From IMG/VR virus record IMGVR_UViG_3300026473_000783: DNA of 64,000 bases; one strand, 5' to 3'. The DNA is from a virus (Duplodnaviria; Heunggongvirae; Uroviricota; Caudoviricetes). Under the pieces are notes generated by a model. That model did no database searches. It was not told the origin of the DNA and was given only the letters and a program-made list of their open reading frames with translations. Positions 812 to 61,992 of this stretch are shown in pieces (the stretch's first letter is position 1; every line of letters begins with the position of its first letter). The translations under genes and the position numbers were made by a program.

Positions 812-838
812 TTTTCGGCATTTTTCTTAAAAACTTTA
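812..838 (-). promoter_or_regulatory. sigma-28 (FliA)-type promoter candidate
   Basis: Minus strand TAAAGTTT-N11-GCCGAAAA (consensus TAAAGTTT-N11-GCCGATAA); about 20 nt upstream of CSD gene start. Confidence 0.5.
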
Positions 839-841
839 ATT

Positions 842-1288
842 TTATTTTAAAGCTTTTAAAATTTTTCGCTTTTCTTTTAAACCTTTTAAAGTGGATTCAT
901 AAGATGAATTATCAGGAACAATGCGGCAAGATTTATATAAATCACCGTTTTGATACTTTTCTAAATTTTTGATCCACTCCTGAACTGTCATATCTAAAGG
1001 ATTGCCATGACAATGAAGTATTCGGGCAGTTGTTTTTGGAGCACCTTTTAATGATTTGAGTTGATTATGTGAACAATTAAAACTACCAACTTTAAAGGGA
1101 CAACCTTCTAATGATCCAAGTTGATTATTGGCACAATCAAAATATCCATTAACTATACCAAATTGAAAAGGAATTGTTTCCAATTTTCTATCACGAAGAT
1201 TAACACTTTGAAAACAATCTAAAATCCCAGTTTTTTCAAACTTTTCTTTATTATATTTAGTGATTCCAAAATCTTCAGGTTTTTTCAT
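842..1288 (-). CDS. family-A LRR-like protein with conserved C-terminal tail
   Basis: Track ORF 842..1306 begins GTG; internal MKKPEDFGI Met at 1288 has RBS AGAGGGG; ends ...CRIVPDNSSYESTLKGLKEKRKILKALK. Confidence 0.55.
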   Translation of the reverse strand: MKKPEDFGITKYNKEKFEKTGILDCFQSVNLRDRKLETIPFQFGIVNGYFDCANNQLGSLEGCPFKVGSFNCSHNQLKSLKGAPKTTARILHCHGNPLDMTVQEWIKNLEKYQNGDLYKSCRIVPDNSSYESTLKGLKEKRKILKALK

Positions 1289-1372
1289 AAAACCCCTCTT
1301 TTTCACATCTTCTATCGAAGATTTCGTGTTAAAAATTTAGTATTTCTTAAAAAAAATGTTCGCATTATCTAT

Positions 1373-1401
1373 TTATTCGGAACACTTACTTTAAAACTTT
1401 A
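1373..1401 (-). promoter_or_regulatory. sigma-28-type promoter candidate (weaker)
   Basis: TAAAGTTT-N12-TCCGAATAA; -35 lies within last codons of 1386..1668. Confidence 0.3.
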
Positions 1402-1668
1402 GCTTTTTTTGAAGCTTTTTCTAATTCAAGAGATTTTTTACTTTTTATCTCATCTATCATCATTTTGTAGTATTCATCCTGAATCTTTAAAGATTCAATC
1501 ATTTTACGATCTTTATCAATGCTTGCTTTTGATACACAAGCGAGTCCATTAGATCCATTAGAACAAACAAGATCAGCTGTCTCAAACTGACCAGATAACT
1601 TATCATTATTCGTTTCCCAAGCTTGACAAACATTTGAAAAAATTAAAATAGCTAAAATTAAACTTTTC
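1386..1668 (-). CDS. small secreted protein (signal peptide)
   Basis: Track ORF 1386..1715 starts TTG and contains the sigma-54 -24/-12; likely start GTG 1666-1668 after RBS AGAGG; N-term VKSLILAILIFSNVCQA. Confidence 0.45.
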
Positions 1669-1695
1669 ACAAAGACCTCTATTTTTATTCTTTTA

Positions 1696-1832
1696 TATAG
1701 CAAGTTAAAAGCCAAGTTTAAATTGGTTATATTCGATTTGAGAGTGTGATTGTCAAAAGATTAGATAGTTATTTGAGCTAAGTATTTGATTTTATTAGGT
1801 GTCAAACTTTTAGTGAGTGGTTAAAGCTTAAA
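1696..1832 (-). promoter_or_regulatory. sigma-54 promoter cassette (-24/-12 + palindromic UAS)
   Basis: Minus-strand TTGGCTTTTAACTTGCT (GG and GC 12 nt apart); UAS ttgattttattaggtgtcaaacttttag... at 1785-1832. Confidence 0.6.
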
Positions 1833-1890
1833 CGATTACCGTATTGCGACAGAGATTTGTCTCAATTCTATTTATAAAGTGGTTTTAAGA

Positions 1891-2115
1891 TTATTGAATC
1901 ACTTTATGTAAAGAACTGTTTTGAAGTGAATACGATAGGGCTTCCTCTAATAGATAAGAATATGCTTCATGATAGGTTTTGAAGGTTTTTGAATAAATCT
2001 CGTTTTTTGAATAGGTAGAAATTACTTTGTAATTTTCACTTTTCCAAATAACTAAAGATAAACGAATTGTTTCATTTTCTTTTAGCTGTAGAGAGTAGAT
2101 GTTTTCTTCATTCAT
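1891..2115 (-). CDS. hypothetical protein (74 aa)
   Basis: ORF only. Confidence 0.3.
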   Translation of the reverse strand: MNEENIYSLQLKENETIRLSLVIWKSENYKVISTYSKNEIYSKTFKTYHEAYSYLLEEALSYSLQNSSLHKVIQ

Positions 2116-2210
2116 AATGATGACTTAGTCCTTTTTTTATAAAATTTTTGTAGATTTTTAAAAAACTACAATCAATACCTTAATCTTCTTCGACTGATTC
2201 TTCTACCGTA

Positions 2211-2435
2211 TTAGAAATCCCATGTTTTTCCTGGTGGTTTTGAATCATCAAAATCAACTTCTTTGACTTCAACTTTTTCTTCTGTATCTAAAGAGTGTTC
2301 GAGTTGGAGCAAGGTACTTATTAAAGTCGCAAAAGCTTGAGAGTGTTCATGACCATGAGAATTTTTTAAATCTTTAATTCTTGCTTTAAGTTGGTTCACT
2401 AATTGTTCTGTTTCTTTTTTTGTTAATGTTTGCAT
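2211..2435 (-). CDS. hypothetical protein (74 aa)
   Basis: ATG with AGGAG RBS; sigma-28-like promoter 2456-2483 upstream. Confidence 0.45.
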   Translation of the reverse strand: MQTLTKKETEQLVNQLKARIKDLKNSHGHEHSQAFATLISTLLQLEHSLDTEEKVEVKEVDFDDSKPPGKTWDF

Positions 2436-2455
2436 ATTTTCTCCTATTATAGAGA

Positions 2456-2483
2456 TTATCGGTTGTTTGTATAAAAAACTTTA
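2456..2483 (-). promoter_or_regulatory. sigma-28-type promoter candidate
   Basis: TAAAGTTT-N12-ACCGATAA, 21 nt from ATG of 2211..2435. Confidence 0.45.
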
Positions 2484-2556
2484 ATTTGATAAGTGTTTGA
2501 TTTTAATACGGTTTAATTAAATAATGTTTGAATACGACAATTTAAAGTCTTATTTT

Positions 2557-2721
2557 AAAGCTTTTAAAATAGACATCTTCTTTTTTAAATTCTTTAAAGT
2601 TGTTTCATAGTCTGGGTTTGGAACTATTCTAATTGATTGATATACATTTTTAAATACAAAATCTCTTTCTAATGCGAAAACACACATCTCAACTGAAGCT
2701 TTTATAAGTTTTCCTTTTTAT
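2557..2721 (-). pseudogene. 3' fragment of a family-B (DUF4116-like) gene
   Basis: Minus-strand translation GKLIKASVEMCVFALERDFVFKNVYQSIRIVPNPDYETTLKNLKKKMSILKALK* with in-frame stops just upstream; no start. Confidence 0.5.
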
Positions 2722-3074
2722 AATTATCGTCAACTTTTTTTAAAAACTTAAACCTTTTTTAATTTTCTCATTTTAAAAAATTTATAATTTTCAATTCCGC
2801 AGAATTGTCCTATCTGTTCAGCGCCTGTTGTTGGATGGAGAGAGAAAGTTTTTGGTAAATCTTATGCGAAAAATAAAGAAAAAATAGAAAACCAAATTCT
2901 TCAATTAAGCTTAGATATTCAGCAAATAGAGGCTAAAATGGTTAAAGTTGATATGAGTGATTTATCTAGAAAAGATCTAGAATCGATCCATACCCTTATT
3001 TTAGCCGATGTTCATCACTAATCTTTAGAGATTAAGAACAATCCCTCTCTATTTAATAAATAAAGGGGGATTTT

Positions 3075-3302
3075 ATGGCTTTACTAGGGTCAGCGATTTT
3101 TTCAATCATATTAGGTCTTTTTATTCTTTGGATTTATTTTCTACCAACCTTTATAGCGAGTAAAAGAAATAATCACTTCTCTTCAGTTCTTTTAATCAAT
3201 TTATTTTTTGGTTGGTCTTTAGTTGGTTGGATTATTGCTTTAGCGATTGCTCTTTCTTCTCCAAAAATTATAGTTGTTGAAAAAAACGAGGATAGATCTT
3301 AA
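3075..3302 (+). CDS. superinfection-immunity (Imm)-like small membrane protein
   Basis: YFLPTFIASKRNNHFSSVLLINLFFGWSLVGWIIALAIAL resembles the phage Imm family motif (FLPsiiA..R...NlllGW..GW); two TM segments. Confidence 0.5.
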   Translation: MALLGSAIFSIILGLFILWIYFLPTFIASKRNNHFSSVLLINLFFGWSLVGWIIALAIALSSPKIIVVEKNEDRS

Positions 3303-4057
3303 TTTTTAACAAATCTATCTTGTATCGATTTATTGATGATATACGCTAAAAATGTAGGCGCAGAAGAACTGGTTCCATTGAATAGGATAGAATCTCCGTC
3401 TTTTGTTTCAAGTAAAACATTTCCCTTAAATGGAGCATAGGCGTTAACTAATTTACCATAATTGGAACGTTCCGATAAAGAATAGGGAAATTCATCGCTA
3501 ATTCCACCTACACAGTAGATGTTTGGAGAATTAAACATACATAACGCTTGAACCTCTTCAACTCTATAAGCATCGTTTCCTGCACTAACCGTTATTTTAA
3601 CTTTATCTGATAAAAACAATAAAGCGATTATTTCTTCTTCATCAATCAAATCTGGCCCAACTCTAACCGATATATTGAGTAGTGATAAGTTTGGAATTTG
3701 GCTCATTTTATTTAAACAATCAGTTAAAATCATCGACTCTTCAATTTGGCAATAAGCTATCTCAATTTTTTCATAAGCGTTAGGGTTTTGTGATTCTACT
3801 GTAGCAATGATCTGATCAATAACGGCTTGACCATGTTTGTCAAAATGAGAAGTTGGGTTTGTTTCGAATTGATAAGCACTTTTATAAAGAGAGCGATTCG
3901 AATTCCAGTTGATTGGATTGATGTCAATAACTCCGATTATAATTTTAGATTGAGTCGAAACTGTTGGGATTTGATTAAAATCGATTAGATCAATTCTATT
4001 CTCTTTTGAAAAATTGATTGAAGCTAAAAGTATTATAGTTGTAATGATTTGTTTCAT
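3299..4057 (-). CDS. secreted subtilisin-like (S8) protein, short/degenerate
   Basis: Signal peptide; IGVIDIN (Asp motif), HGQAVID (His motif), GTSSSAPTFLA (Ser motif); paralogs 53183..53923, 34984..35994. Confidence 0.5.
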   Translation of the reverse strand: MKQIITTIILLASINFSKENRIDLIDFNQIPTVSTQSKIIIGVIDINPINWNSNRSLYKSAYQFETNPTSHFDKHGQAVIDQIIATVESQNPNAYEKIEIAYCQIEESMILTDCLNKMSQIPNLSLLNISVRVGPDLIDEEEIIALLFLSDKVKITVSAGNDAYRVEEVQALCMFNSPNIYCVGGISDEFPYSLSERSNYGKLVNAYAPFKGNVLLETKDGDSILFNGTSSSAPTFLAYIINKSIQDRFVKN

Positions 4058-4067: not shown

Positions 4068-4208
4068 GTTGCAAATAAAATGCCTACTTATAAAGAATTG
4101 TAGTGGATTTGATAAGAGTGAAGTGTTAAAAGCTTAGATGTTTTAGGTCTAAGCTCTTGATTTTATTAGGTGTAAAACTTTTATCTGCTGTTTAAAGATT
4201 AAACAACT
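4068..4208 (-). promoter_or_regulatory. sigma-54 promoter cassette
   Basis: AGGCATTTTATTTGCA; UAS 4156-4208; drives 3299..4057. Confidence 0.55.
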
Positions 4209-4390
4209 AATACTAAAAAACTAACCACGGCAACAGCCACAGCAACGTATCGAAGCTTTGTATCTAATTTTGCTAATTTAGCTTGATCATTGTTTTGTTT
4301 TGATAAGACAAAATCCCAAACTAAAGCTCCTAATACAGCCCAAAAACAGGCACTCACGATTTGCGCTAAAAAACTTGTCGATTCTAACAT
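4199..4390 (-). CDS. small membrane protein (63 aa)
   Basis: Hydrophobic ORF; sigma-28-like promoter 4422-4448. Confidence 0.4.
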   Translation of the reverse strand: MLESTSFLAQIVSACFWAVLGALVWDFVLSKQNNDQAKLAKLDTKLRYVAVAVAVVSFLVLVV

Positions 4391-4421: not shown

Positions 4422-4448
4422 TTATCGGACATTTATTTTAAAACTTTA
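4422..4448 (-). promoter_or_regulatory. sigma-28-type promoter candidate
   Basis: TAAAGTTT-N11-TCCGATAA; -35 overlaps last codons (LKF*) of 4438..4824. Confidence 0.5.
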
Positions 4449-4824
4449 ATGTATTTATGACTCTTTGAATATGTTCTCTGTCTACTAGTTCTTTTGCTGA
4501 TTTTTTTGTTGCTAAATCGCTATAAGCTAAATTTCTAATCAATTCTTTAAGGTGAGCTGAATTGTTTTCTTTTAAAGTTTGAACTCCTGTAATTGTATCT
4601 CCAACGACAAGAAGGATTTGTTCTGACAGGGTAGTGTCGATTAGGAAAATTTCATTATTGATTTTAAATTGGATCTGATACGAAATCTTAGATTCTCCTT
4701 CATATATGTAGTTTTCTAATCTATTAAAAGTGTATTGATTTGCGTCAACTAATTGTCGAATAGCTTGATAAGTTTTTGATTGGGCTTGAGTCATTCCAAA
4801 TATTTTTTCGATTAGTTTTTGCAT
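4438..4824 (-). CDS. hypothetical protein, 128-aa family
   Basis: MQKLIEKIFGMTQAQ...NSAHLKELIRNLAYS; paralog of 13077..13463; sigma-54 cassette upstream. Confidence 0.5.
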   Translation of the reverse strand: MQKLIEKIFGMTQAQSKTYQAIRQLVDANQYTFNRLENYIYEGESKISYQIQFKINNEIFLIDTTLSEQILLVVGDTITGVQTLKENNSAHLKELIRNLAYSDLATKKSAKELVDREHIQRVINTLKF

Positions 4825-4846: not shown

Positions 4847-4999
4847 GTAGCAATTTATAGGCCAAGTTCTTGTGTTATTATATTTGATTTGAAAATATGG
4901 GTGTTAAAAGTTTGGTTAAAAGTTTGGATAGGGATTTGGGGTAAGTTGTTGATTTTATTAAGTGTCAAACTTTTAATCAATGATAAGTGATTTGACAAC
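4847..4999 (-). promoter_or_regulatory. sigma-54 promoter cassette
   Basis: TTGGCCTATAAATTGCT; UAS 4948-4999 (TGTCAAAC...TTGACA). Confidence 0.6.
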
Positions 5000-5157: not shown

Positions 5158-5185
5158 TTATCGGAACATTTAAGAATAACTTTAG
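5158..5185 (-). promoter_or_regulatory. sigma-28-type motif with no adjacent downstream ORF
   Basis: TAAAGTTA-N12-TCCGATAA; 330 nt of non-coding DNA before 4438..4824. Confidence 0.3.
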
Positions 5186-6551: not shown

Positions 6552-6690
6552 GTAGCAAGTTAAGTGCCAACTTTATGTCCGTTATAGAAGATTTAAGTCA
6601 AGTCAGTGTTTGGGAAATGATCAATGAAGGGTTTAAGTGCTTGATTTTATTAGGTGTCAAACTTTTAGGCGATGAATTAAAGATTTACAC
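6552..6690 (-). promoter_or_regulatory. sigma-54 promoter cassette
   Basis: TTGGCACTTAACTTGCT (consensus TGGCAC-N5-TTGC); UAS 6641-6690. Confidence 0.65.
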
Positions 6691-8672: not shown

Positions 8673-9461
8673 ATGAATAATCTAAAAATAAATCAAGAAG
8701 CTATATTTGAAAAAATCTACAAAATAGAGAGAAATGGTGAACTTCAAATCGTTATGTTAGATAAAGATTTAGCTGATTTTTACCAAACAGATACTCGTAA
8801 GATAAATCAATCAGTCAAAAGAAATCCTTTAAAATTTGCTGATCAAACATTTAAACTCACAAAAGAAGAGTGGCTCTCTATTTTAAAAGCAAGAAATGAA
8901 AATGAGGAAGATCCAATTGAATTTAAAGGTGGACATTTACCTTCAGTTTTTACAGAAGAAGGCGCTTTAGCGTTATCGACAGTGTTGGAATCTCCAGTTG
9001 CTATTCAAGTTTTTAAAGTGTTGCTAAAATCATTTTTTGCGATGAGAACTCTTCTAAAGGAAAGACCAGATCTCCAACTTCATCAAGAGGTTTGGGAATT
9101 AAAGAATAGAGTTATTGAAGTTGAGAAAAAAATTGGTGAAAACTCAAATCAAAACGTGGTTATTCATCAATTGACAAATAATGGAACTTTTCAACTTGGA
9201 TCAAACAACTCAATGGTTGTTAAAATCAATGACTTTGAAGATGTTGTTCAATTTATGACAGAACTTAGACGTCATCCTGGTATAAAGGATAATCTTGAAT
9301 CTAAAGAAGCGATTGATAAATCGATTCAATTAGCTCTAAAAGCGGATAAAAAAGGATTGTTGGAACAAATGAGTTCAGTCATATCAATCACCAATAACAT
9401 TGCTGATTTAGCAGTTAAAGCTTCTCCTGTGATTTTATCCATTTTATCTTGGCTTAAATAA
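8673..9461 (+). CDS. ORF6N-domain-like protein (phage antirepressor-associated N-domain)
   Basis: VMLDKDLADFYQTDTRKINQSVKRNPLKFADQTFKLTKEE resembles the ORF6N core. Confidence 0.45.
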   Translation: MNNLKINQEAIFEKIYKIERNGELQIVMLDKDLADFYQTDTRKINQSVKRNPLKFADQTFKLTKEEWLSILKARNENEEDPIEFKGGHLPSVFTEEGALALSTVLESPVAIQVFKVLLKSFFAMRTLLKERPDLQLHQEVWELKNRVIEVEKKIGENSNQNVVIHQLTNNGTFQLGSNNSMVVKINDFEDVVQFMTELRRHPGIKDNLESKEAIDKSIQLALKADKKGLLEQMSSVISITNNIADLAVKASPVILSILSWLK

Positions 9462-10806
9462 AACCTTGCTGTTTTAGAGCTTTTTTTAATTTTTTTATAG
9501 ATAAACCATACTTTCCTAAAGGAGAAGTTATATAAGTTTTGAAATATTTGTTCCCATAAACTTTTTTAGCTTCTTTTTCATATTTAAAAATCTGCTTCTT
9601 ATTACGATCACAATTCTGCTTCTTTTTGTCTGATTTTGTTTCTACAATGATTTTCATTCCTTTTTTATTAGTGCAAACAAAGTCTGGCTTACATTCTTTT
9701 GATAGATTAGGTTCGTATTCAAATTTTAAATCTATTTCTTTAAATAATTTTTTATATTTTGGGTGAACCACCTTTTTTTCGTGAAGATCAAGTTCTGTGT
9801 TAAAAGGATTAGAGCCTTTTAATAAAGATTGAATTGAAATAGTTGTTGTTTTTTTTGTATAAAATTCTTCAATCAATACAATCCAATCCCTTGAATCCTT
9901 AGATTTTGAGACAATTCGTTTAAATCTAAATTTGGGTGAAGATTTTTTTCCAATTTGGTTTACCCTAATTTCATTTTCTTTTATAGAATAAGATTTTTTC
10001 CAAGGGTTATGGCCACGCAAAAGAGAAGCGTGAGGTTTGACTGCCGTTTTTTTCGTTTCAATGTTTTGAATTTTGACTTCGATTTTGTTTAAATTATTTT
10101 TACCTATATATTTTAAGAATTTATATTGAGGATTTGATTTTCGACCTTGTCTATTGGTTGTATTTTTAATTTGCTTTAATGAGTATTTGACTTTCCAAGG
10201 ATTTGTTCCTCTTAATAAAGAAGATAGTCTTGAAAGTTCTGTTTCTCCAGTTTCGTCAAGCTTAACTTCAATTAATCGGTCAGTCCCAGATTTGATTCCT
10301 GAATCTCTTACAAAAGAATAAGAAGGCTTTGCGCTCTTCCCTGCGGCGTTTATTTTTAATTTAATTTCTTCTAAAGTGTAAGCGTTTCCCCAAGGGTTAG
10401 ATCCGTTCATTAAATTTGATAATTGAGCTGTCGCTTTTTGTCCATATTGATTTTTAATTTCAATAATTCGAATGGATTTAGCAGTTCCAACTTTGATTCC
10501 AGTATCTCGAACAAATATATATTTTGGGGTAGATTTTGCCCCAACTGCGTTAACTTTTTGCCTTAGAATTTCTTCACTATAAGGAACGCCTCTTCCTGAA
10601 AAAGGGTTTACGCCTCCCATGATATGTCGAAACAAGCGAATTGCTGTTTTATTGGAATTAATCATTTGAATTTTTACTAACTTTTCATTTTTTGAATTAC
10701 GACCAGCAAGCGAGTGAAATTTAAATTTAGGTTCTCGGATCTTTCCTTTAAGATTGACAGCGTTTTTAAGTTCTTTGTCAGAATATCTAATTCTTTTTGT
10801 ATTCAT
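9454..10806 (-). CDS. repeat protein with C-terminal PD-(D/E)xK nuclease-like domain
   Basis: About 8 copies of ~45-aa module IxxxGKKSxPxYxF...IEVK...LSxLLxGxNPW; C-term KPDFVCTNKKGMKIIVETK (D...E.K); paralogs 17384..18715, 55753..56652. Confidence 0.5.
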   Translation of the reverse strand: MNTKRIRYSDKELKNAVNLKGKIREPKFKFHSLAGRNSKNEKLVKIQMINSNKTAIRLFRHIMGGVNPFSGRGVPYSEEILRQKVNAVGAKSTPKYIFVRDTGIKVGTAKSIRIIEIKNQYGQKATAQLSNLMNGSNPWGNAYTLEEIKLKINAAGKSAKPSYSFVRDSGIKSGTDRLIEVKLDETGETELSRLSSLLRGTNPWKVKYSLKQIKNTTNRQGRKSNPQYKFLKYIGKNNLNKIEVKIQNIETKKTAVKPHASLLRGHNPWKKSYSIKENEIRVNQIGKKSSPKFRFKRIVSKSKDSRDWIVLIEEFYTKKTTTISIQSLLKGSNPFNTELDLHEKKVVHPKYKKLFKEIDLKFEYEPNLSKECKPDFVCTNKKGMKIIVETKSDKKKQNCDRNKKQIFKYEKEAKKVYGNKYFKTYITSPLGKYGLSIKKLKKALKQQGFI

Positions 10807-10847: not shown

Positions 10848-10874
10848 TTATCGGTTGCTTTGTCTGAAACTTTA
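10848..10874 (-). promoter_or_regulatory. sigma-28-type promoter candidate
   Basis: TAAAGTTT-N11-ACCGATAA upstream of 9454..10806. Confidence 0.45.
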
Positions 10875-12596: not shown

Positions 12597-12660
12597 TGTT
12601 TTTATCCTAAAAACACACTTAAAGATTTATTGACTTCATTTCTATTTTTTCATTTAATTC
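12597..12660 (-). repeat. 65-bp repeat derived from the 3' end of the 128-aa family gene
   Basis: tgtttttatcctaaaaa.cacttaaag.ttt.ttgacttcatttctatttttt also at 13060-13125, where it encodes the C-terminus of 13077..13463. Confidence 0.45.
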
Positions 12661-13043
12661 TAATGATACAATTCTTTCTTTTTTTGAGTTAAAGAATTAA
12701 GAATTAAATTAGAATAATGTCGGATTCTTTTATAATCCAGCCCATGATCTTTTTTGATATTAGAAACTTTTTCAACTTCCTTTAGAAGGGATTCACAAGC
12801 TTCTGCTAAATTTATAACTCCCGCAAGATTAAACAGCACTGAGGCTTGAGATAGATTGTCTTTAATTAATTGAACTGCTATATAATGGTTTATGTTTTTG
12901 GTTTTGGCATTTTTTGGAGTTGCTGAGATAATTTCTTTTAGATTCAAGCTCGCGTTATAAATGGCTTCTATGTTAATGTTCATAAAATCTCCGCATTTGT
13001 GTGTTTTATCGGCAAGTTTTTTTAAAATTGAACATCTTATCAA
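12660..13043 (-). CDS. hypothetical protein (127 aa)
   Basis: 3' end overlaps a 65-bp repeat derived from the 3' end of the 13077..13463 family. Confidence 0.4.
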   Translation of the reverse strand: MIRCSILKKLADKTHKCGDFMNINIEAIYNASLNLKEIISATPKNAKTKNINHYIAVQLIKDNLSQASVLFNLAGVINLAEACESLLKEVEKVSNIKKDHGLDYKRIRHYSNLILNSLTQKKKELYH

Positions 13044-13076: not shown

Positions 13077-13463
13077 TTATCCTAAAAATCCACTTAAAGC
13101 TTTTTTGACTTCATTTCTATTTTTTAATTCTTGGCTTTTTTCAATTTCTTTTAATTTTGAATAAGCTAAGTTTCTAACAAATTCTTTAAGGTGAGCTGAG
13201 TTTCTTTCATTAATTGGAAATACAGCAGTTATCGCGTCATTAGCAACAATCATGAGTGATTCTCCCAAGATTGAGTCCATCATGATTTTTTGATCTTTAT
13301 TTGAGATTTCAAATTGATACGAGATAAAGACTTGCCCGTCATTATAGAATTTCTCTAATCGAGTGAACTTGTATTGGCCCAAATCGACCAACTCTTTAAC
13401 TTTTTGAAGCATTTCGGTTTGTTCAGGTGTCATTCCAAATAATTTTTCGATTAACTTGATCAT
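13077..13463 (-). CDS. hypothetical protein, 128-aa family
   Basis: Paralog of 4438..4824; sigma-54 cassette (TTGGCATCGAGATTGCT). Confidence 0.5.
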   Translation of the reverse strand: MIKLIEKLFGMTPEQTEMLQKVKELVDLGQYKFTRLEKFYNDGQVFISYQFEISNKDQKIMMDSILGESLMIVANDAITAVFPINERNSAHLKEFVRNLAYSKLKEIEKSQELKNRNEVKKALSGFLG

Positions 13464-13488
13464 ATGATCTCCTCGCTTATTGATTTAT

Positions 13489-13620
13489 GTAGCAATCTCG
13501 ATGCCAAATTCTTTTATTGTTATATTGGACTTGAGTCGTTCAGTTGTCAATTGTTTGGTCGTTTCTTTTCTAACCCCTTGATTTTATTCACTGTCAAACT
13601 TATCGGCGGTGTTTAAGAGT
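13489..13620 (-). promoter_or_regulatory. sigma-54 promoter cassette
   Basis: TTGGCATCGAGATTGCT; UAS 13578-13620. Confidence 0.65.
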
Positions 13621-14230: not shown

Positions 14231-14794
14231 TCAATCCTCAATTTTTGCTGTTTTATGAGAATCTCCATAAATTTTAATGATAGTTTGGATTTGCTCCAAG
14301 CTGTAAGTTTTTTCTTCCCCAATCATTAAAACTGGACTCATAAGGCTTGACTGATCTTCGACATGTTTAAAGCCCAATGCGTGAGATAGTTCGTGCCTAA
14401 ATAAAGATCGAAAGTCATATTCTTCAAAGTTAGGTGAAAAATAGATATTTGCTTCTAAAATCTCATCTCCACGCCAATGAAGGCTCGTTCTTGCTTGTTC
14501 CGAAGGATTTAGATCCTTATATTGGTTGTTGGTGTTCCAGTAGAGGACATTTTTAGTTGTGTCAATTTCTTTAACTTCTTCATTAGAGATTGAAACAAGA
14601 TCAATTCCAATTGTTCGATTAAGGGTTGAGATTTCTTCGCGGGCTATTGTTCTTTTTTTAGAGGGAAAATCTTTATGGAAATAAAACTTAACTTCTTTTT
14701 TCCATCTCAACGGTTCATTATAAGCGTTAGATAAGAAGATTTTGTTTGAATGACAAGAGCATAAAAAAATTATTAATAGATAAAAACTTTTCAT
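14231..14794 (-). CDS. metzincin-type zinc metalloprotease lipoprotein
   Basis: HELSHALGFKH = HExxHxxGxxH; LLIIFLCSC lipobox; paralog 55047..55601. Confidence 0.6.
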   Translation of the reverse strand: MKSFYLLIIFLCSCHSNKIFLSNAYNEPLRWKKEVKFYFHKDFPSKKRTIAREEISTLNRTIGIDLVSISNEEVKEIDTTKNVLYWNTNNQYKDLNPSEQARTSLHWRGDEILEANIYFSPNFEEYDFRSLFRHELSHALGFKHVEDQSSLMSPVLMIGEEKTYSLEQIQTIIKIYGDSHKTAKIED

Positions 14795-14800: not shown

Positions 14801-14828
14801 TTATCGGCTATATTTTGAAAAAACTTTA
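14801..14828 (-). promoter_or_regulatory. sigma-28-type promoter candidate
   Basis: TAAAGTTT-N12-GCCGATAA; identical 32-mer also at 15318-15350 and 16818-16850. Confidence 0.5.
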
Positions 14829-15102: not shown

Positions 15103-15303
15103 TTATTTGTTTTTTCTCTTAAAATCAACAAAAATGACATTACTGTTTGTGTTTTCTTCTTTATCGCTTTCTTTGATATTAGACACGTTCCACAAACCTT
15201 CGCATCCGTATTTTTCACAAATATCGATGTGTTGCTTTGAAACATTGCTTAGCACTTTTTCTAAATAATCTTTATCTTTTAAAAGTTCTCTTGATTCACT
15301 CAT
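15103..15303 (-). CDS. hypothetical protein (66 aa)
   Basis: ORF downstream of sigma-28-like motif 15321-15348. Confidence 0.35.
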   Translation of the reverse strand: MSESRELLKDKDYLEKVLSNVSKQHIDICEKYGCEGLWNVSNIKESDKEENTNSNVIFVDFKRKNK

Positions 15304-15320: not shown

Positions 15321-15348
15321 CTATCGGCTATATTTTGAAAAAACTTTA
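15321..15348 (-). promoter_or_regulatory. sigma-28-type promoter candidate
   Basis: TAAAGTTT-N12-GCCGATAG. Confidence 0.45.
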
Positions 15349-16820: not shown

Positions 16821-16848
16821 TTATCGGCTATATTTTGAAAAAACTTTA
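16821..16848 (-). promoter_or_regulatory. sigma-28-type promoter candidate
   Basis: TAAAGTTT-N12-GCCGATAA, 18 nt from ATG of 15409..16803. Confidence 0.5.
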
Positions 16849-18722: not shown

Positions 18723-18750
18723 TTATCGGTTGTTTTATCTAAAAACTTTA
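18723..18750 (-). promoter_or_regulatory. sigma-28-type promoter candidate
   Basis: TAAAGTTT-N11/12-ACCGATAA. Confidence 0.45.
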
Positions 18751-20924: not shown

Positions 20925-20951
20925 TTATCGGTTAGTTGTTCTAAAACTTTA
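20925..20951 (-). promoter_or_regulatory. sigma-28-type promoter candidate
   Basis: TAAAGTTT-N11-ACCGATAA upstream of second CSD-like gene. Confidence 0.5.
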
Positions 20952-23435: not shown

Positions 23436-23634
23436 AGATCTTATCTGCTAATAAGAAAGCTTTTGATCCATTGTGCTTTTTTGATTTTTCGATATAAGAA
23501 TCTTTAAGGGGAGATTCCAAGATGTCAATTCCTTGGTTTATCGCTTTTTTAGCAAAAAACTTAAGAGCTGACGCGTCCATTTTGAATCTTTCAAAAGCTC
23601 TATCTATAGCATGTTGGCTTATTATTAAGTTCAT
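23365..23634 (-). CDS. hypothetical protein (~90 aa)
   Basis: Track start TTG; ATG at 23634 lies 14 nt from the sigma-54 -12. Confidence 0.4.
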   Translation of the reverse strand: MNLIISQHAIDRAFERFKMDASALKFFAKKAINQGIDILESPLKDSYIEKSKKHNGSKAFLLADKIFVFQQNKLITVMPIQFLAGQYVA

Positions 23635-25678: not shown

Positions 25679-25706
25679 TAATCGGATCTTTTAATTAAAA
25701 ACTTAA
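25679..25706 (-). promoter_or_regulatory. sigma-28-type promoter candidate (weaker)
   Basis: TTAAGTTT-N11-TCCGATTA. Confidence 0.3.
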
Positions 25707-26599: not shown

Positions 26600-26626
26600 T
26601 TATCGGAATAATTCATTTAAACTTTA
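26600..26626 (-). promoter_or_regulatory. sigma-28-type promoter candidate
   Basis: TAAAGTTT-N11-TCCGATAA upstream of DUF262 gene. Confidence 0.45.
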
Positions 26627-27360: not shown

Positions 27361-27388
27361 TTATCGGAATAAATTAAAATAACTTTAG
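27361..27388 (-). promoter_or_regulatory. sigma-28-type promoter candidate
   Basis: TAAAGTTA-N12-TCCGATAA. Confidence 0.4.
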
Positions 27389-28991: not shown

Positions 28992-29018
28992 TTTTCGGCT
29001 TACTTTTTTAAAACTTGA
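28992..29018 (-). promoter_or_regulatory. sigma-28-type promoter candidate
   Basis: TCAAGTTT-N11-GCCGAAAA. Confidence 0.4.
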
Positions 29019-31263: not shown

Positions 31264-31476
31264 CTATTTTTCATATCTAGATATTTTAACAGCGTTAGGT
31301 CTTTTTTTAGAAACTTCTTCGTGTGGTCCAAGCCAATTTTTATCGTTAACATTAAATTCAACTTGAACTTTTTCGATATGTCCTACCTCATCTAGTCCAC
31401 CCTCATAGCCATCGACAAGAACGGGAAGGTCTTGAGGAAATGTAGATAAGTGTTTCATTAACTCTTTTACAGTCAT
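31264..31476 (-). CDS. hypothetical small protein (paralog of 5192..5398)
   Basis: MTVKELMKHLSTFPQDLPVLVDGYEGGLDE. Confidence 0.4.
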   Translation of the reverse strand: MTVKELMKHLSTFPQDLPVLVDGYEGGLDEVGHIEKVQVEFNVNDKNWLGPHEEVSKKRPNAVKISRYEK

Positions 31477-31490: not shown

Positions 31491-31925
31491 TTATATTTTG
31501 TTAATTTCAAAAAATAATTTGTTAGATTGTTTAGATGAACAAATCAGTTGAAGATTAGAATGTATTTTTTCTTTTCCACCGATACGAAAAAAATAACCAT
31601 TTTTTAAAAAGTTTAATAATTTTTCTTGTAAATCAGGTGCGAGTTGATTAGATTCGTATAGAAGTAAAATTCCACCATTTGCCACTTCGATTAGTCCAAT
31701 TTTTTTATGATAAGCATTTTTAAAAGAACCTTTCTCATGACCAAAGATTTCAGATTCTAACAAAATACCAGATAAAGCCGAACAATTGATCATAATAAGA
31801 GGTTTGTCTTTTCGATCACTTCTTTGATGAAAATCACGACAGAACTCTTCTGCTTCATTAAGTGATTCTTTTAAGATAAGTATTGGTTTTGGTATTTTCA
31901 TAGAGATAGTATCGGAATTTTTCAT
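31491..31925 (-). CDS. truncated, degenerate sigma-54 activator (bEBP AAA+) fragment
   Basis: INCSALSGILLESEIFGHEKGSFKNA....GLIEVANGGILLLYESNQLAPDLQEKLLNFLKNGYFFRIGGKEKIH aligns to bEBP NCAAIPE.LLESELFGHEKGAFTGA...GGTLFLDEI..L....Q.KLLRVL....F.R.GG; Walker A replaced (KESLNEAE), GAFTGA->GSFKNA, Walker B DE->YE; only 144 aa. Confidence 0.5.
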   Translation of the reverse strand: MKNSDTISMKIPKPILILKESLNEAEEFCRDFHQRSDRKDKPLIMINCSALSGILLESEIFGHEKGSFKNAYHKKIGLIEVANGGILLLYESNQLAPDLQEKLLNFLKNGYFFRIGGKEKIHSNLQLICSSKQSNKLFFEINKI

Positions 31926-32000
31926 ATAAACTTTAATTTATAAGTGTATGATTTTAATACGTTTTATTTAAAAAATGGTTGAATGCGACAAATTGAAGTC

Positions 32001-37895: not shown

Positions 37896-37936
37896 CTCTT
37901 GAGATACTTCTCGGATATTTAAAATAAAACTTTAAT

Positions 37937-38529: not shown

Positions 38530-38556
38530 TTTTCGGCATTTTTCTTAAAAACTTTA
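38530..38556 (-). promoter_or_regulatory. sigma-28-type promoter candidate
   Basis: TAAAGTTT-N11-GCCGAAAA upstream of LRR gene. Confidence 0.5.
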
Positions 38557-41284: not shown

Positions 41285-41394
41285 GTATTCTCCTTATAAG
41301 GATTGTCGGGATTTTTTTAAAAAGCTTTAGCTTTTTTTTAATTTTGATTAAAATCGAGACACTTTTTGATAATTTTATCAAAATAAGTCAAGTT

Positions 41395-42176: not shown

Positions 42177-42203
42177 CTTTTCGGAACTATTCTTAAAAAC
42201 TTT
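42177..42203 (-). promoter_or_regulatory. sigma-28-type promoter candidate
   Basis: TAAAGTTT-N11-TCCGAAAA upstream of LRR gene. Confidence 0.5.
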
Positions 42204-42207
42204 AATT

Positions 42208-45515: not shown

Positions 45516-45542
45516 TTATCGGTACATTTTTTTTAAACTTTA
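45516..45542 (-). promoter_or_regulatory. sigma-28-type promoter candidate
   Basis: TAAAGTTT-N11-ACCGATAA. Confidence 0.5.
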
Positions 45543-45875: not shown

Positions 45876-46022
45876 TAAGCAATAAAGGTGCCAAGTCATG
45901 TCGTTTTTATTTCATTTAAAAACGCTTCTAAACGAGCACTGTTTAACTTTTTTACAAATCTTAGCTAAGAGGTTGATTTTGTTAGGTGTCGAGCTTATAG
46001 GCGATGTTAAGAGGTTTTACAC
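45876..46022 (-). promoter_or_regulatory. sigma-54 promoter cassette
   Basis: TTGGCACCTTTATTGCT; UAS 45971-46022. Confidence 0.65.
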
Positions 46023-47340: not shown

Positions 47341-47367
47341 TTATCGGAAAGTTTTTTAAAAACTTTA
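47341..47367 (-). promoter_or_regulatory. sigma-28-type promoter candidate
   Basis: TAAAGTTT-N11-TCCGATAA. Confidence 0.5.
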
Positions 47368-51729: not shown

Positions 51730-52128
51730 ATGGCAAATAACCCCACAAACTATAAACAAGTCATTTTAATTCGTGAAGATCTCAATTTAAGTGCTGGAAA
51801 ACTTGCCGCTCAAGTTGCTCATGCTTCGCTAGGAGCTATTTTATCTATTTCGAAAATTGAAGATAAAAAATTAACAATTGAGCTGGATGATCCTACTTTT
51901 CTTTGGATTAGTGAGCGATTTACAAAAATTTGCTTAAAAGTAAAAAATGAAGAAGAGCTTCTGTTCTACTACAATAAAGTTAAGGAATCAAACTTAAAAC
52001 ATGCGATTATAAAAGATGCTGGCTTTACTGAGCTTGAATCTCCAACATTGACTTGTCTAGGGATTGGTCCTGATTTCAATGATAGGATTGACGCAATTAC
52101 AAAAAAATTAAGGCTATACAACAAGTGA
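51730..52128 (+). CDS. peptidyl-tRNA hydrolase PTH2 family
   Basis: KQVILIREDLNLSAGKLAAQVAHAS....DAGFTELESPTLTCLGIGP....KKLRLY matches PTH2 signature. Confidence 0.65.
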   Translation: MANNPTNYKQVILIREDLNLSAGKLAAQVAHASLGAILSISKIEDKKLTIELDDPTFLWISERFTKICLKVKNEEELLFYYNKVKESNLKHAIIKDAGFTELESPTLTCLGIGPDFNDRIDAITKKLRLYNK

Positions 52129-52634
52129 AAAAACCTGAAGATTTTGGAATCACTAAATATGATAAGAAAAAGTTTAAAAAAACTGGAATTTTAGATTGCT
52201 TCCAGAATGTCAATTTAAGTAATCTAAAATTAACAAAAATTCCCTTTAACTTTGGAACCATTGAAGGTTTTTTTTCTTGCTCAAACAATAATTTAAACTC
52301 ATTAAAAGGATCTCCAAGAATTGTTTCAGGTAGCTTTTATTGTTTTAACAATAAATTAAAATCATTAAAAAATTCTCCAGAAAAAGTTTTTTGTGACTTT
52401 TATTGTGATAATAATAAATTAAAATCTTTAAAAAATATATCAGAATGCCATCGAGACGTTTATTGCGAAGAAAATCCGATAGATATGACAGTAAAAGACT
52501 GGATTGAGGTTTTAGAAAAATGTCCAAATAGCGATTTATTCAAATACTGTCAAATAACTTCTGACAATTCAACTTATGAGAATGTCTTAAATTGTCTTAA
52601 AGAGAAATTAGCTATTTTAGAAGCTTTAGATTAA
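52125..52634 (+). CDS. family-A LRR-like protein
   Basis: GTG start overlapping PTH2 stop (GTGA); VKKPEDFGITKYDKKKF...; tail YCQITSDNSTYENVLNCLKEKLAILEALD. Confidence 0.55.
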   Translation: MKKPEDFGITKYDKKKFKKTGILDCFQNVNLSNLKLTKIPFNFGTIEGFFSCSNNNLNSLKGSPRIVSGSFYCFNNKLKSLKNSPEKVFCDFYCDNNKLKSLKNISECHRDVYCEENPIDMTVKDWIEVLEKCPNSDLFKYCQITSDNSTYENVLNCLKEKLAILEALD

Positions 52635-53932: not shown

Positions 53933-54070
53933 GTAGCAAGAAAAAGGCCAAATCTATATATTTTATATTGGATTTGGGGTATGGAAATGTTTAAAGATTT
54001 TACAGAGAATGATCTAAGTCGTTGATTTTATGAGGTGTTAATCTTTTAGTCGGTGGTTAAAAGATTGACA
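53933..54070 (-). promoter_or_regulatory. sigma-54 promoter cassette
   Basis: TTGGCCTTTTTCTTGCT; UAS 54021-54070. Confidence 0.6.
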
Positions 54071-54459: not shown

Positions 54460-55038
54460 TTAGTCAAAAAGAGCTAATATAGCTTGTTTTTCTTTTAAAC
54501 CTTTTAAAGTCGACTCATAAGTGGAATTATCTGAAACAATTAAACAAAGTTTAAAAAAGTTTCTGCTCGAATGTTGAGTTTTTGTTAAAAATTCTATCCA
54601 CTCTTGGACAGTCATGTCTAAAGGATTTCCAAAAAAAACCATTGAACCTTTTACTTCAGGAAGATTGTTTATTTTTTTCAATTTATTGTATTGACAATAA
54701 AAACCGCCAATAGCTTTTAATGGACTTCCTTCTAATGAAGTGAGTTGATTATAGGAACAATCGCAAATCTGATTGACTTCTTTAGGAAAATACTGTGATG
54801 ATTTAAGTTGATTATGAGAACAATCAAAATCTCCCAAAACTTTTTTAGGAGAACCTTTTAGTGATTTAAGATTATTTACTGATAAAATAAAATCTCCATG
54901 AGCGATTCCAAAATTAAAAGGGATTTCTGATAAATTTCGATTGCTCAAGTCGACATTCTGAAAACAATCCAAAACTCCCGTTTTTTCAAACTTTTCTTTA
55001 TCATATTTGGTAATTCCAAAATCTTCCGGTCTTTTCAT
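54460..55038 (-). CDS. family-A LRR-like protein
   Basis: MKRPEDFGITKYDKEKF...; co-operonic with metzincin gene. Confidence 0.55.
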   Translation of the reverse strand: MKRPEDFGITKYDKEKFEKTGVLDCFQNVDLSNRNLSEIPFNFGIAHGDFILSVNNLKSLKGSPKKVLGDFDCSHNQLKSSQYFPKEVNQICDCSYNQLTSLEGSPLKAIGGFYCQYNKLKKINNLPEVKGSMVFFGNPLDMTVQEWIEFLTKTQHSSRNFFKLCLIVSDNSTYESTLKGLKEKQAILALFD

Positions 55039-59691: not shown

Positions 59692-59740
59692 ACATCTATT
59701 GTTTCGAAATTATTAAATAAAGTCAATAATTTCATAAAGA

Positions 59741-60088
59741 TTGTATCATTTCGATTCATTTTATCGTTTTTTTAAGTGTTTTTTCTATTTAACAAATGGG
59801 GGATATATGAAAAAAGGTTTTTTAATTTTAGTTCTTGAGAGCAGCAAAGAGAATATATATGATGAAAGTGAGGTTTTTGAAGTTGATCAAAATTGGAAAG
59901 ATAATTCAGATCTTATCGAAAAAATAAAAGAGTTTTCACAAAAATCTTTGAAGCTAAATGAAAAATCTACAGACGAAACGTTTTTTGTATCTATTGACGT
60001 AGTGGAATGTCCAGAAGGTCTTTTATCTGTTTTTGAAGAAATTGAAAACTATACGGAAAAATTTTGCGACGATTTAAGCAATTCTTAA
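59741..60088 (+). CDS. hypothetical acidic protein
   Basis: ORF only. Confidence 0.35.
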   Translation: MYHFDSFYRFFKCFFYLTNGGYMKKGFLILVLESSKENIYDESEVFEVDQNWKDNSDLIEKIKEFSQKSLKLNEKSTDETFFVSIDVVECPEGLLSVFEEIENYTEKFCDDLSNS

Positions 60089-60142
60089 TTTTTTAAGATC
60101 TTTTATAATAACAAAGACAATTCTGAAAAGATTTGTCTTTTT

Positions 60143-60613
60143 TTATTTAAAAGCTTCTAATATCTCTTTTTTGTTTAATAGATTCTTAATGGTCGTTTTA
60201 TAGTTTGGATTTGGCACTATTCTAACATATTTATAACAACCTTTATCTAGTTTTAAAGCTAAAAGACATATTTCAACGGTTTGTTCTTCTACAAACTGAA
60301 TAGATCCACTCCACTTTTCAATTGCTAGTTTACACAATTCTTTCGTTTGATTTTTTACAAACATTAAACACCAAGGTTCTTGTTTAATAGAGAATTCACA
60401 AATTTTATTTATCTGATTGTTTATTACAGATAAAATTGTTGGATCTAATTTTAAATAATCACAAATTTCTTCTTCATTTAATTGATTTAGCCAATTAACA
60501 AAAGTTTTATGCTCTTTTTTTGAGCAAATTTGTAGATTTGACCAGTCTTTAAAATGCCAAGCTTGATTTCTTAAATTTTCTTCAAATAAAGATTTAATTT
60601 CTTTATTTGTCAT
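60143..60613 (-). CDS. family-B DUF4116-like repeat protein
   Basis: ...VRIVPNPNYKTTIKNLLNKKEILEAFK. Confidence 0.55.
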   Translation of the reverse strand: MTNKEIKSLFEENLRNQAWHFKDWSNLQICSKKEHKTFVNWLNQLNEEEICDYLKLDPTILSVINNQINKICEFSIKQEPWCLMFVKNQTKELCKLAIEKWSGSIQFVEEQTVEICLLALKLDKGCYKYVRIVPNPNYKTTIKNLLNKKEILEAFK

Positions 60614-61077
60614 TTTAAAGCCTCTAAAATAGCTTTTTTCTCTAATAGATTTTTAAGGGTCATTTCATAATTAGTATTTGGGACAATTCTAATATGCGAA
60701 TAAACTTCACTATCTGATTTTAAAGCTAAAAGGCACAAATCCACAGTTTGTTCTTTAACATTTTTTATAATGAATGGATTGAATTGAATCGCTATTGAAA
60801 ACAATCTTTCACTTGGATCTTTAATTGATAAAACAAGATGAGGAATTCGACTAATTGCGATAATAGCCAAATATTCGTCAAGATTTGTCAAAACTGAAAT
60901 AATGGTTGGACTCTTCTGAACATAGCTAATCAATTCTTTTGTGTTTAATTGATTAAGCCATGTTATGAAAATAGACATTTCATATTCAGAACAAACCTTT
61001 AATACTTTCCAATTCCAGAATAGAACGCCACTTTCTACATTTTTATCAAATAATCTTTTAATTTCGCTATTTTTCAT
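60610..61077 (-). CDS. family-B DUF4116-like repeat protein
   Basis: ...IRIVPNTNYEMTLKNLLEKKAILEALK; 4-nt overlaps on both sides. Confidence 0.55.
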   Translation of the reverse strand: MKNSEIKRLFDKNVESGVLFWNWKVLKVCSEYEMSIFITWLNQLNTKELISYVQKSPTIISVLTNLDEYLAIIAISRIPHLVLSIKDPSERLFSIAIQFNPFIIKNVKEQTVDLCLLALKSDSEVYSHIRIVPNTNYEMTLKNLLEKKAILEALK

Positions 61078-61675
61078 TTTTTATTTTTTCAAAAACAGCA
61101 CAAACTCGTTTTATCTGATTTTTACAATCATCAATAGCATTATGCTTTTCACCTTTAAATTCAATTTCTTTTTTCGAATTAAAATTAAAAGCCCTCATTC
61201 CAATATCGTCATAGGTCCGAACATCTGCATCATCCCAGTACTTCCAAGGAGCTTCAATGCTACAAGCGTTATAAGCGGATCTAACCCAGACACAATCAGC
61301 AACAGGCCCGTTTCCCCAAACCTTAACTTTTGAACAGTTATTTTTTTTCATCTCTTCCTTTAACCAATCGGTAAAAGCAAAAAGAACTTCTCTTAACTCC
61401 TCACCTTCTGTAAAAGCTTTTAAAATAACCTTATTGAAAACAGATTCTTCCTGTTTAAGCCAAAAATCCATTGTCGGAACGCTTCCATAAGGACTCTCAC
61501 AAGACAAACCTACTTTAGCACAAGATTGAGGCTTAATGAATCGATTAAACTCACTTAGAGGTTTTCCTGACTCGATTTGAAATGAAACTGCAGATAACTG
61601 AGTGATAACTGGTTTAAGACCGTTTCCTAACGTTTCAACATCAAGCATTATATCTAATGTATTTGACTTAATCAT
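61067..61675 (-). CDS. DEDDh-type 3'-5' exonuclease
   Basis: MLDVETLGN (Exo I D.E), VWGNG (Exo II), HNAIDD (Exo III). Confidence 0.55.
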   Translation of the reverse strand: MIKSNTLDIMLDVETLGNGLKPVITQLSAVSFQIESGKPLSEFNRFIKPQSCAKVGLSCESPYGSVPTMDFWLKQEESVFNKVILKAFTEGEELREVLFAFTDWLKEEMKKNNCSKVKVWGNGPVADCVWVRSAYNACSIEAPWKYWDDADVRTYDDIGMRAFNFNSKKEIEFKGEKHNAIDDCKNQIKRVCAVFEKIKNEK

Positions 61676-61935
61676 AACGATTCTCTTAAATTACCAGATT
61701 CTTCAGTTCCGTTTTGTTCAATCTCCTGGCCCATTTTGATTTTATCTTCTCTTGAATTATCTCGAATCGAAGAACCAAAATAATCTTCAGCTAATTGAAT
61801 TAAATAACGCTCCTTAGCTTCTTTAATTGTTCTAAACGGACCCAAAGGGGATCTATCGAAATAATTTGGGTATTTAACAAAAAATCCACTATCCTTTTTT
61901 ACTACTGACGCATCGCACATTTCTAAAACTTTCAC
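61672..61935 (-). CDS. hypothetical protein (87 aa)
   Basis: GTG start after RBS AGGAG; overlaps exonuclease start. Confidence 0.4.
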   Translation of the reverse strand: MKVLEMCDASVVKKDSGFFVKYPNYFDRSPLGPFRTIKEAKERYLIQLAEDYFGSSIRDNSREDKIKMGQEIEQNGTEESGNLRESL

Positions 61936-61965
61936 ATTTTCTCCTTTTTTTTGTTGTTAATATAA

Positions 61966-61992
61966 TTATCGTCGTTTTTTTTAAAAACTTAA
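61966..61992 (-). promoter_or_regulatory. sigma-28-type promoter candidate (weaker)
   Basis: TTAAGTTT-N11-GACGATAA upstream of exonuclease operon. Confidence 0.35.

Follow-up and report, generated by a model that had tools for sequence, protein, structure and literature searches.

The window analysed here is the whole 64,000-nucleotide (nt) stretch of DNA filed as record IMGVR_UViG_3300026473_000783. It holds about 109 open reading frames (ORFs), 89 of them on the minus strand, and has a GC content of 29%, the sequence of this organism lying at 27–30%. Just upstream of 22 minus-strand genes we found a bipartite element with the half-sites and spacing of a sigma-28-type promoter, and all sites are co-oriented with the genes. 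An earlier note on this DNA had proposed about 20 near-consensus sites between positions 812 and 61992. This was borne out, as 24 minus-strand sites were counted, from 812-838 to 61966-61992, where 0.19 are expected.

Two patterns were used to define the motif. The strict one, TAAAGTTT-N11/12-CCGAWAA, gave nine matches, all on the minus strand, with 0 expected from 100 shuffles. The relaxed one allows at most one mismatch in the -35 half, a spacer of 12–13 nt and at most one mismatch in CCGATAA, the CGA being fixed; it gave the 24 minus-strand sites and none on the plus strand, with a mean of 0.19 and a maximum of 2 in 200 dinucleotide-preserving shuffles. Moreover, TAAAGTT[TA] stands 12–13 nt upstream of 12 of the 16 CCGATAA heptamers on the minus strand and of none of the four on the plus strand, a test that agrees with the motif count and does not presuppose the full motif.

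The 26 candidate sites, weak ones included, are listed below. Each is named in the text by its upper minus-strand coordinate (838 stands for 812..838).

812..838, minus strand: sigma-28-type promoter, TAAAGTTT-N12-CCGAAAA, for the CSD-like 68-amino-acid (aa) gene 587-793; ATG 18 nt past the -10, AAGAGG between
2456..2483, minus strand: sigma-28-type promoter, N13, perfect halves, for the 74-aa gene 2211-2435; ATG 20 nt past the -10, Shine-Dalgarno sequence (SD) AGGAG
2724..2751, minus strand: weak, doubtful site, TTAAGTTT-N13-ACGATAA; only a 45-aa ORF downstream
4422..4448, minus strand: sigma-28-type promoter, exact, for the 63-aa gene 4199-4390; the -35 overlaps the last three codons of 4438-4824 (11 nt)
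5158..5184, minus strand: orphan sigma-28-type site, TAAAGTTA-N12-CCGATAA; no ORF of at least 40 aa downstream
10848..10874, minus strand: sigma-28-type promoter, exact, for the 450-aa repeat and PD-(D/E)xK gene 9454-10806; ATG 41 nt past the -10
13006..13031, minus strand: weak site, doubtful -35 TCAATTTT, N11, perfect CCGATAA, for 12660-13043 (ATG 12983); SD GGAG, ATG 22 nt past the -10
14801..14828, minus strand: sigma-28-type promoter, N13, for the matrixin-type lipoprotein gene 14231-14794; ATG 6 nt past the -10, predicted leaderless
15321..15348, minus strand: sigma-28-type promoter, N13, CCGATAG, for the 66-aa gene 15103-15303; 28-nt core as in 14828 and 16848
16821..16848, minus strand: sigma-28-type promoter, N13, for the 464-aa gene 15409-16803; SD AGGAGG begins 7 nt past the -10
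18723..18750, minus strand: sigma-28-type promoter, N13, for a repeat and PD-(D/E)xK gene; ATG 18715, 7 nt past the -10, predicted leaderless
20925..20951, minus strand: sigma-28-type promoter, exact, for the CSD-like 68-aa gene 20701-20907
23538..23564, minus strand: weak, doubtful site, TTAAGTTT-N12-GCGATAA; no convincing downstream gene
25679..25706, minus strand: sigma-28-type promoter, TTAAGTTT-N13-CCGATTA, for the DUF4116 gene 25184-25669; ATG 9 nt past the -10
26600..26626, minus strand: sigma-28-type promoter, exact, for the GmrSD_N/DUF262 gene 25712-26545; 54-nt leader
27361..27387, minus strand: sigma-28-type promoter, TAAAGTTA-N12-CCGATAA, for the 62-aa gene 27153-27341
28992..29018, minus strand: sigma-28-type promoter, TCAAGTTT-N12-CCGAAAA, for the 112-aa gene 28613-28951
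31340..31366, minus strand: probably a chance match, TCAAGTTG-N12-ACGATAA, inside gene 31264-31476; 3 mismatches
31909..31935, minus strand: sigma-28-type promoter for the 144-aa sigma-54-activator AAA+ fragment gene 31491-31925; ATG 31901, 7 nt past the -10
37908..37934, minus strand: sigma-28-type promoter, CCGAGAA, for the HD_4 gene 37398-37895
38530..38556, minus strand: sigma-28-type promoter for an LRR gene, ATG 38512
41303..41329, minus strand: sigma-28-type promoter, TAAAGCTT-N12-CCGACAA, for the 116-aa gene 40934-41284
42178..42204, minus strand: sigma-28-type promoter for the LRR gene 41395-42159
45516..45542, minus strand: sigma-28-type promoter, exact, for the gene ending at 45178; ATG 17 nt past the -10, SD GGAGG
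47341..47367, minus strand: sigma-28-type promoter, exact, for 46943-47320, followed after 14 nt by the Band_7 gene 46143-46928
61966..61992, minus strand: sigma-28-type promoter, TTAAGTTT-N12-ACGATAA, for 61672-61935, which overlaps the Rv2179c-like exonuclease gene 61067-61675

Column counts were made over 25 of these sites. They are T 25, A 19, A 25, A 25, G 24, T 24, T 25 and T 23 in the -35 half, and C 22, C 25, G 25, A 25, T 19, A 24 and A 23 in the -10 half, and information content is at background level directly outside both half-sites. The spacer before CCGATAA measures 12 nt at 18 of the 26 sites, 13 nt at seven and 11 nt at one weak site; it should be noted that an 11-nt spacer between octamers equals 12 nt ahead of CCGATAA. 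Half-sites and spacing together agree with the sigma-28 consensus at up to 15 of 15 positions.

The position of the motif relative to genes was analysed in a pooled set that comprises the window and the loci L023, L027 and L038 to L046 of the same organism (about 290 kb), where a wider motif scan returned 43 unique sites. Over this set, the -10-to-ATG distance follows a bimodal distribution. A short class has no SD and consists of nine sites with a distance of exactly 7 nt and of two more, at 6 and 9 nt, while a long class of about 21 sites at 17–24 nt carries a GGAG-type SD between the -10 and the ATG, its core beginning 7–9 nt past the -10 in 17 of the 21. The base 8 nt past the -10, which is the predicted +1, is A at 30 of 41 sites and G at seven, hence a purine at 37. 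At the loci outside the window, the motif tracks gene orientation on both strands and stands ahead of unrelated genes.

In the Pseudomonas aeruginosa sigma-28 open complex on fliC, TCTAAAG occupies positions -36 to -30 and GCCGATAA positions -15 to -8 (PMC12784957). With the resulting -10-to-+1 gap of 7 nt, the 7-nt class places the A of the ATG at +1, as in a leaderless mRNA, and in the second class the SD would be located at the predicted +1 to +3. The Escherichia coli sigma-28 consensus is TAAAGTTT-n11-GCCGATAA, and the aer start was mapped 6 bp downstream of the -10 octamer (PMC2859248); the A of the short-class ATG falls within 1–2 nt of that start. Such a coupling to the start codon, combined with a purine at +1, is a promoter prediction and is not expected of an operator, a terminator remnant or a coding relic.

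The range of 8–40 nt formerly given for the distance to the start codon does not describe these sites well, as the -10-to-start distance runs from 6 to 54 nt and is mostly 7 or 17–20 nt. On the other side, the distance from the upstream stop codon to the site varies from -11 to +815 nt, whereas the distance to the downstream start is tightly constrained. Nor does the -35 half frequently overlap the last codons of the upstream gene, as had been stated: the upstream coding sequence (CDS) is overlapped by only two of the 26 sites, and the motif abuts it instead, 10 sites beginning 2–7 nt past its stop codon.

To see whether the sites resemble one another outside the motif, we compared them at 51 non-motif positions, of which 20 lie upstream of the motif, 11 within the spacer and 20 downstream. 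Pairwise identity has a median of 20/51, where base composition would lead one to expect about 15; a single pair (838/42204) is more than 70% identical, and the 26 candidate sites fall into 25 clusters. The sites are not copies of one repeat. Sites 838, 38556 and 42204 are near-duplicates; 14828 and 15348 lie at the common 3′ end of a duplicated small ORF, and 16848 has only the 28-nt core in common with these two. The 32-mer that had been reported three times is in fact 31 nt long and is exact at 14799 and 16819, while the copy at 15319 differs at its first three bases; its 28-nt core is the promoter. The fear that the motif might be merely 3′ coding or terminator-associated sequence found no support in the two CDS overlaps out of 26 or in terminator-like hairpins, which occur at chance level (9 against 8.3 expected) in a scan that is uninformative in AT-rich DNA.

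The genes downstream of the sites in the window encode two CSD-like 68-aa proteins, two LRR proteins, a DUF4116 paralog, a matrixin-type lipoprotein, an HD_4 protein, a GmrSD_N/DUF262 protein, two large proteins with repeats and a PD-(D/E)xK domain, a Band_7 operon, an exonuclease operon, an AAA+ fragment and many ORFans. The two operons, 46943-47320 with the Band_7 gene and 61672-61935 with the exonuclease gene, are probable. The genes named in the earlier note thus carry the site, namely LRR (38556, 42204), CSD-like (838, 20951), DUF262/GmrSD_N (26626) and metzincin (14828), as do two of the three PD-(D/E)xK repeat genes (10874, 18750). The two LRR proteins show weak similarity to SspH2/internalin LRRs, under the family cut-offs. 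Targets on other contigs include an OmpA-family protein, a helicase, a subtilase, PcfJ-like, DUF2201 and Cas4-like/DUF2779 proteins, and more LRR and DUF4116 proteins. None of the downstream genes, in the window or on the other contigs, has a flagellar class 3 identity (flagellin, motor, chemotaxis or FlgM).

Between the good site 5158-5184 (minus strand) and position 4865, where the next sigma-54 promoter lies, about 290 nt are without an ORF of at least 40 aa, and this orphan site may drive a small RNA or a micro-ORF. No sigma-28-type site lies between 47367 and 61992, a stretch that contains most of the large plus-strand genes of the window (a nuclease, PTH2, LRR and a 510-aa lipoprotein).

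A second promoter type is interleaved with the first. The pattern TGGY-N7-TTGCW has 23 matches in the window, where 1.09 are expected, and 22 of the matches lie on the minus strand.

1699-1714 to 53935-53950, minus strand: sigma-54-type -24/-12 elements, e.g. 4849-4864, 6554-6569, 13491-13506, 36007-36022 and 45878-45893

These contain the -24 GG and -12 GC elements (TGGC-N7-TTGC) of sigma-54 promoters and are part of a conserved cassette about 105 nt long, TAAAATCAA-N4-TTAG ... TT(G/A)ACA ... AAATCNAATATAA-N12-TTGGC-N7-TTGCTAC. The cassettes contain a TTGACA-like element, and their upstream blocks could serve as the site of an activator or of IHF, or as a sigma-70-like promoter in tandem. Such a density of sigma-54 promoters is extraordinary for 64 kb. 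The proposed partition between two alternative sigma factors is clear at the level of genes: 17 minus-strand genes have a sigma-54-type and 22 a sigma-28-type promoter, none has both, and 50 have neither, many of these being in operon positions. Neither an rpoN gene nor a complete sigma-54 activator was seen. A scan with the sigma-70 consensus stayed at chance (85 matches against 83.1 expected); in DNA of 29% GC it is uninformative and speaks neither for nor against the scarcity of sigma-70 signals on the minus strand that had been noted.

One sigma-28-type target bears on both promoter types. Gene 31491-31925 (minus strand) encodes a stand-alone 144-aa sigma-54 activator AAA+ fragment that covers positions 19-144 of the 168 of Pfam Sigma54_activat; on our reading of its sequence, it lacks the Walker A segment and has GSFKNA as a degenerate form of GAFTGA. 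This fragment could link the sigma-28 and sigma-54 regulons, or could equally be a decayed gene.

About 21 genes of the window belong to a paralog family with DUF4116-like repeats (e.g., 47371-47844, 26630-27097, 42208-42759, 60143-61077 and 62010-63401). The family has a C-terminal tail, RIVPNPDxETTLKNLxEKKAILEALK, which is also found on the LRR genes 37937-38539, 41395-42159, 52125-52634 and 54460-55038 and which might act in sorting or secretion. In searches of 5.8 billion proteins and of the JGI metagenomes, the tailed DUF4116 family was found only on contigs of this organism. Paralog pairs also occur in similar local blocks, as seen for HD_4 (19661-20155 and 37398-37895) and LspA-like genes (21030-21422 and 38588-39010). 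The two HD_4 copies differ in promoter type, one having a sigma-54-type and the other a sigma-28-type promoter, which suggests that promoter modules are exchanged between duplicated genes.

Three further genes deserve mention. A TnpB/IS605 OrfB gene of 543 aa lies at 48178-49809 (minus strand), and the JGI contig ends just ahead of it, so that this gene is probably repeated in the genome. On JGI contig Ga0255167_1000086 (locus L038), the plus-strand gene 1794-3890 encodes a 698-aa fusion of an AAA_33 kinase, a metallophosphatase and a T4-type RNA ligase 1, which resembles the T4 Pnk/Rnl1 RNA repair cassette; it adjoins genes for TPM, an M48 peptidase and a Dda-like helicase, the last of which has a sigma-28-type promoter. 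At locus L027, the minus-strand gene 13123-13605 lies about 2.2–2.7 kb beyond the left end of the window, where the array of one-strand genes has its left border, and encodes a 160-aa protein with two helix-turn-helix (HTH)-like repeats and a faint Sigma70_r4_2 match. We rejected it as a sigma factor because it is without region 2; it may be a local regulator.

The DNA of the window is contained in the 71.7-kb ENA contig k141_26692 (ERZ27251577) and is also represented in JGI 3300024350 and in Logan SRR7686838; proteins of the window occur in addition on contigs of 233 and 419 kb. A protein of the window and a GAPDH gene were found on the same contig of 419,463 bp, and the window is therefore chromosomal and comes from a cellular organism. 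A giant phage or plasmid had been considered, given the number of small ORFans on one strand, the T4-like Rnl1/PNK gene and the presence of a Dda-like helicase, and was rejected as the main reading in view of the GAPDH linkage, the lipoprotein, OmpA and histidine-kinase genes and the lack of matches to PHROGs structural families. IMG/VR gave no close match; tblastn gave no match against phages and, against plasmids, only distant DUF4116 proteins (Clostridioides, Alistipes). Against GTDB species representatives, the Band_7 protein reached at best 44% identity, the matching loci having 49–51% GC. The nearest named matches of the GAPDH and FtsH-like proteins of linked contigs are 44–54% identical and scattered over phyla, and their close relatives occur only in Logan, ENA and JGI assemblies. 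Scans of the window and loci, about 290 kb, for tRNA genes and Rfam families gave no match. With its RCC1 repeats, Suv3-like helicase, PTH2, LRR proteins, nuclease and many secreted proteases, the gene content may hint at a life style that is host-associated or predatory.

Taken together, the match to the consensus, the spacing, the co-orientation, the distance to the start codon, the purine at +1 and the dissimilarity outside the motif argue that these promoters are probably read by a sigma-28-family holoenzyme and that they form a co-regulated set of accessory genes. Several findings weigh against this sigma-28 reading. A tblastn search of the window and 11 loci with E. coli FliA and FliC gave no match at E<10, and neither fliA, flgM, flagellin nor other flagellar genes were found in these 290 kb, which represent a minority of the genome and are biased to accessory regions. 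The G that precedes CCGATAA in GCCGATAA is weakly kept (9 of 25 sites), and the seven 13-nt spacers exceed the E. coli optimum by one. Use of the motif is also patchy: L049, a syntenic locus of a related organism (GAPDH 79% identical), and its counterpart L040 both lack sites. Finally, the lineage of this organism may not have sigma-28. Of the claim that sigma-28 (FliA)-type promoters stand on non-flagellar genes, the sigma-28-type part holds by sequence geometry, while FliA proper could not be upheld, no fliA having been found in the sequence searched.

One alternative reader of the promoters is a different sigma factor with convergent specificity, for instance another group 3/4 sigma or one carried in by a mobile element, which would stand outside any FliA-type circuit. 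The undetected fliA and the weak extended -10 G would fit such a factor, as would the abundance of mobile or defence-like genes (TnpB, GmrSD_N, Imm_superinfect, ORF6N and, on a sister contig, the T4-like Rnl1/PNK). The search with FliA, however, revealed no sigma-70-family ORF in the 290 kb, both half-sites and their spacing fit the sigma-28 consensus at up to every position, and the linkage to GAPDH makes the window chromosomal. Moreover, promoters of the ECF type have AAC/CGT-type cores rather than TAAAG/CCGATAA. We regard a different sigma factor as unlikely.

A motif of two parts at fixed spacing can also be the site of a transcription factor, and the protein with two HTH-like repeats just to the left of the window could be thought of as the repressor or activator that binds it as an operator. 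The halves, however, are neither direct nor inverted repeats of each other; the 7-nt distance to the ATG, the SD at the predicted +1 to +3 and the purine at +1 are predictions of a promoter, and the 6–20 nt that separate the motif from the genes leave no other promoter-like element between, which makes an operator very improbable. Least credible is a passive by-product of duplicated cassettes or of conserved 3′-end or terminator sequence, for even though paralogous genes are many, three sites have the 28-nt core in common, three others are near-duplicates, 10 begin just past an upstream stop, which in five of them (838, 26626, 37934, 42204 and 47367) belongs to a paralog-family gene ending in ...LK*, the sites differ outside the motif (25 clusters for 26 sites), rarely overlap a CDS and also precede genes that do not adjoin the paralog family as well as genes on other contigs, and terminator-like hairpins stay at chance level.

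If a sigma-28-family holoenzyme is the reader, RNA polymerase carrying a group 3 sigma factor (FliA/SigD/WhiG) would use these sites, with sigma region 4 reading TAAAG(TTT) and region 2 reading (G)CCGATAA. Transcription would start 8 nt past the last A of the -10 and yield either a leaderless mRNA, in which the A of the ATG is +1, or an mRNA whose 5′ end is the SD itself, with a leader of 10–13 nt. Each promoter would serve a single gene or a short operon. In this way, roughly one in four minus-strand genes of the accessory region would belong to one co-regulated set, including secreted or lipoprotein proteases, LRR, DUF4116, HD-domain and CSD-like proteins, nucleases and many ORFans, and a separate set would be under sigma-54-type promoters. 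By analogy with the attack-phase genes of Bdellovibrio and the late genes of chlamydiae, the sigma-28 set would probably be activated in a single phase of the life cycle, upon release of the sigma factor from its anti-sigma factor. The motif, its statistics, its geometry and its coupling to start codons are the observations from which we infer the binding sigma, the transcript starts and this phase-specific role.

A wider picture can be sketched tentatively. The organism might be an uncultured low-GC freshwater bacterium that transcribes much of its large accessory arrays of effector-like genes (LRR, DUF4116, RCC1, secreted proteases and nucleases) through two alternative sigma factors, each gene having its own minimal promoter module, either sigma-28 with a leaderless or SD-at-+1 mRNA or the 105-nt sigma-54 cassette. 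It might thereby run a two-sigma developmental or host-interaction programme like that of Chlamydia or Bdellovibrio, possibly with a sigma-28 no longer tied to flagella and with modules swapped between paralogs. We hold this whole to be possible rather than probable.

If the sigma-28 reading is true, it maps a regulon with dozens of co-regulated genes in an organism seen in metagenomes only, and points to a sigma-28/sigma-54 life-phase switch, as in predatory and intracellular bacteria. It would also mean that sigma-28 promoters can be packed as minimal modules (a -10, 7 nt, then an ATG or SD), easily predicted and reusable as compact sigma-specific expression parts, and it would add to the evidence that the 'flagellar' sigma often acts as a general life-style regulator.

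The sites share both half-sites and their spacing with the class 3 flagellar (FliA) promoters of E. coli/Salmonella and P. aeruginosa; the E. coli fliC promoter (L048, NC_000913.3) reads TAAAGGTT-N12-ACGATAA, with the spacing seen at the window sites. Unlike these class 3 promoters, those of the window have non-flagellar targets and a weak extended -10 G. In the 4.6-Mb genome of E. coli, chromatin immunoprecipitation sequencing (ChIP-seq) found 52 FliA sites, 30 of them intragenic, and several non-flagellar targets (PMC4183435). The density here is about 24 sites in 64 kb against these 52 ChIP-seq sites in a whole genome, and in contrast to E. coli the sites are nearly all intergenic and coupled to start codons, with predicted leaderless and SD-at-+1 classes.

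A likeness is also offered by Bdellovibrio bacteriovorus, in which the FliA motif TTAAG-N16-CCGATA was found at 92 of 140 mapped attack-phase promoters (PMC3627812). The targets include proteases, surface proteins and uncharacterised proteins, and FliA is a global life-phase regulator (Karunker et al. 2013, PMC3627812). As in Bdellovibrio, a sigma-28-type motif precedes many non-flagellar genes here, and the N13 and TTAAGTTT variants fit the Bdellovibrio logo. Unlike there, where starts are mapped and fliA is known, the present promoters are known from sequence alone and are interleaved with sigma-54-type promoters. In Chlamydia trachomatis, sigma-28 and sigma-54 divide non-flagellar, stage-specific late genes, according to three reports (PMC10597470, PMC12282069, PMC7482065). 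As in Chlamydia, two alternative sigma types split a non-flagellar gene set, a likeness that implies no placement in the Chlamydiota; there are far more sites per kb here.

In Streptomyces, the sigma-28-family factor WhiG controls differentiation and not flagella. WhiG uses a sigma-28-type promoter, and SigD of Bacillus subtilis is a further member of the family. The WhiG and SigD systems are Gram-positive, whereas genes of the lipoprotein and OmpA type suggest a diderm here. Non-flagellar genes under sigma-28 promoters are thus already well documented; what is unusual here is the density of the promoters, their minimal leader architecture and their interleaving with sigma-54 cassettes without any sharing of genes.

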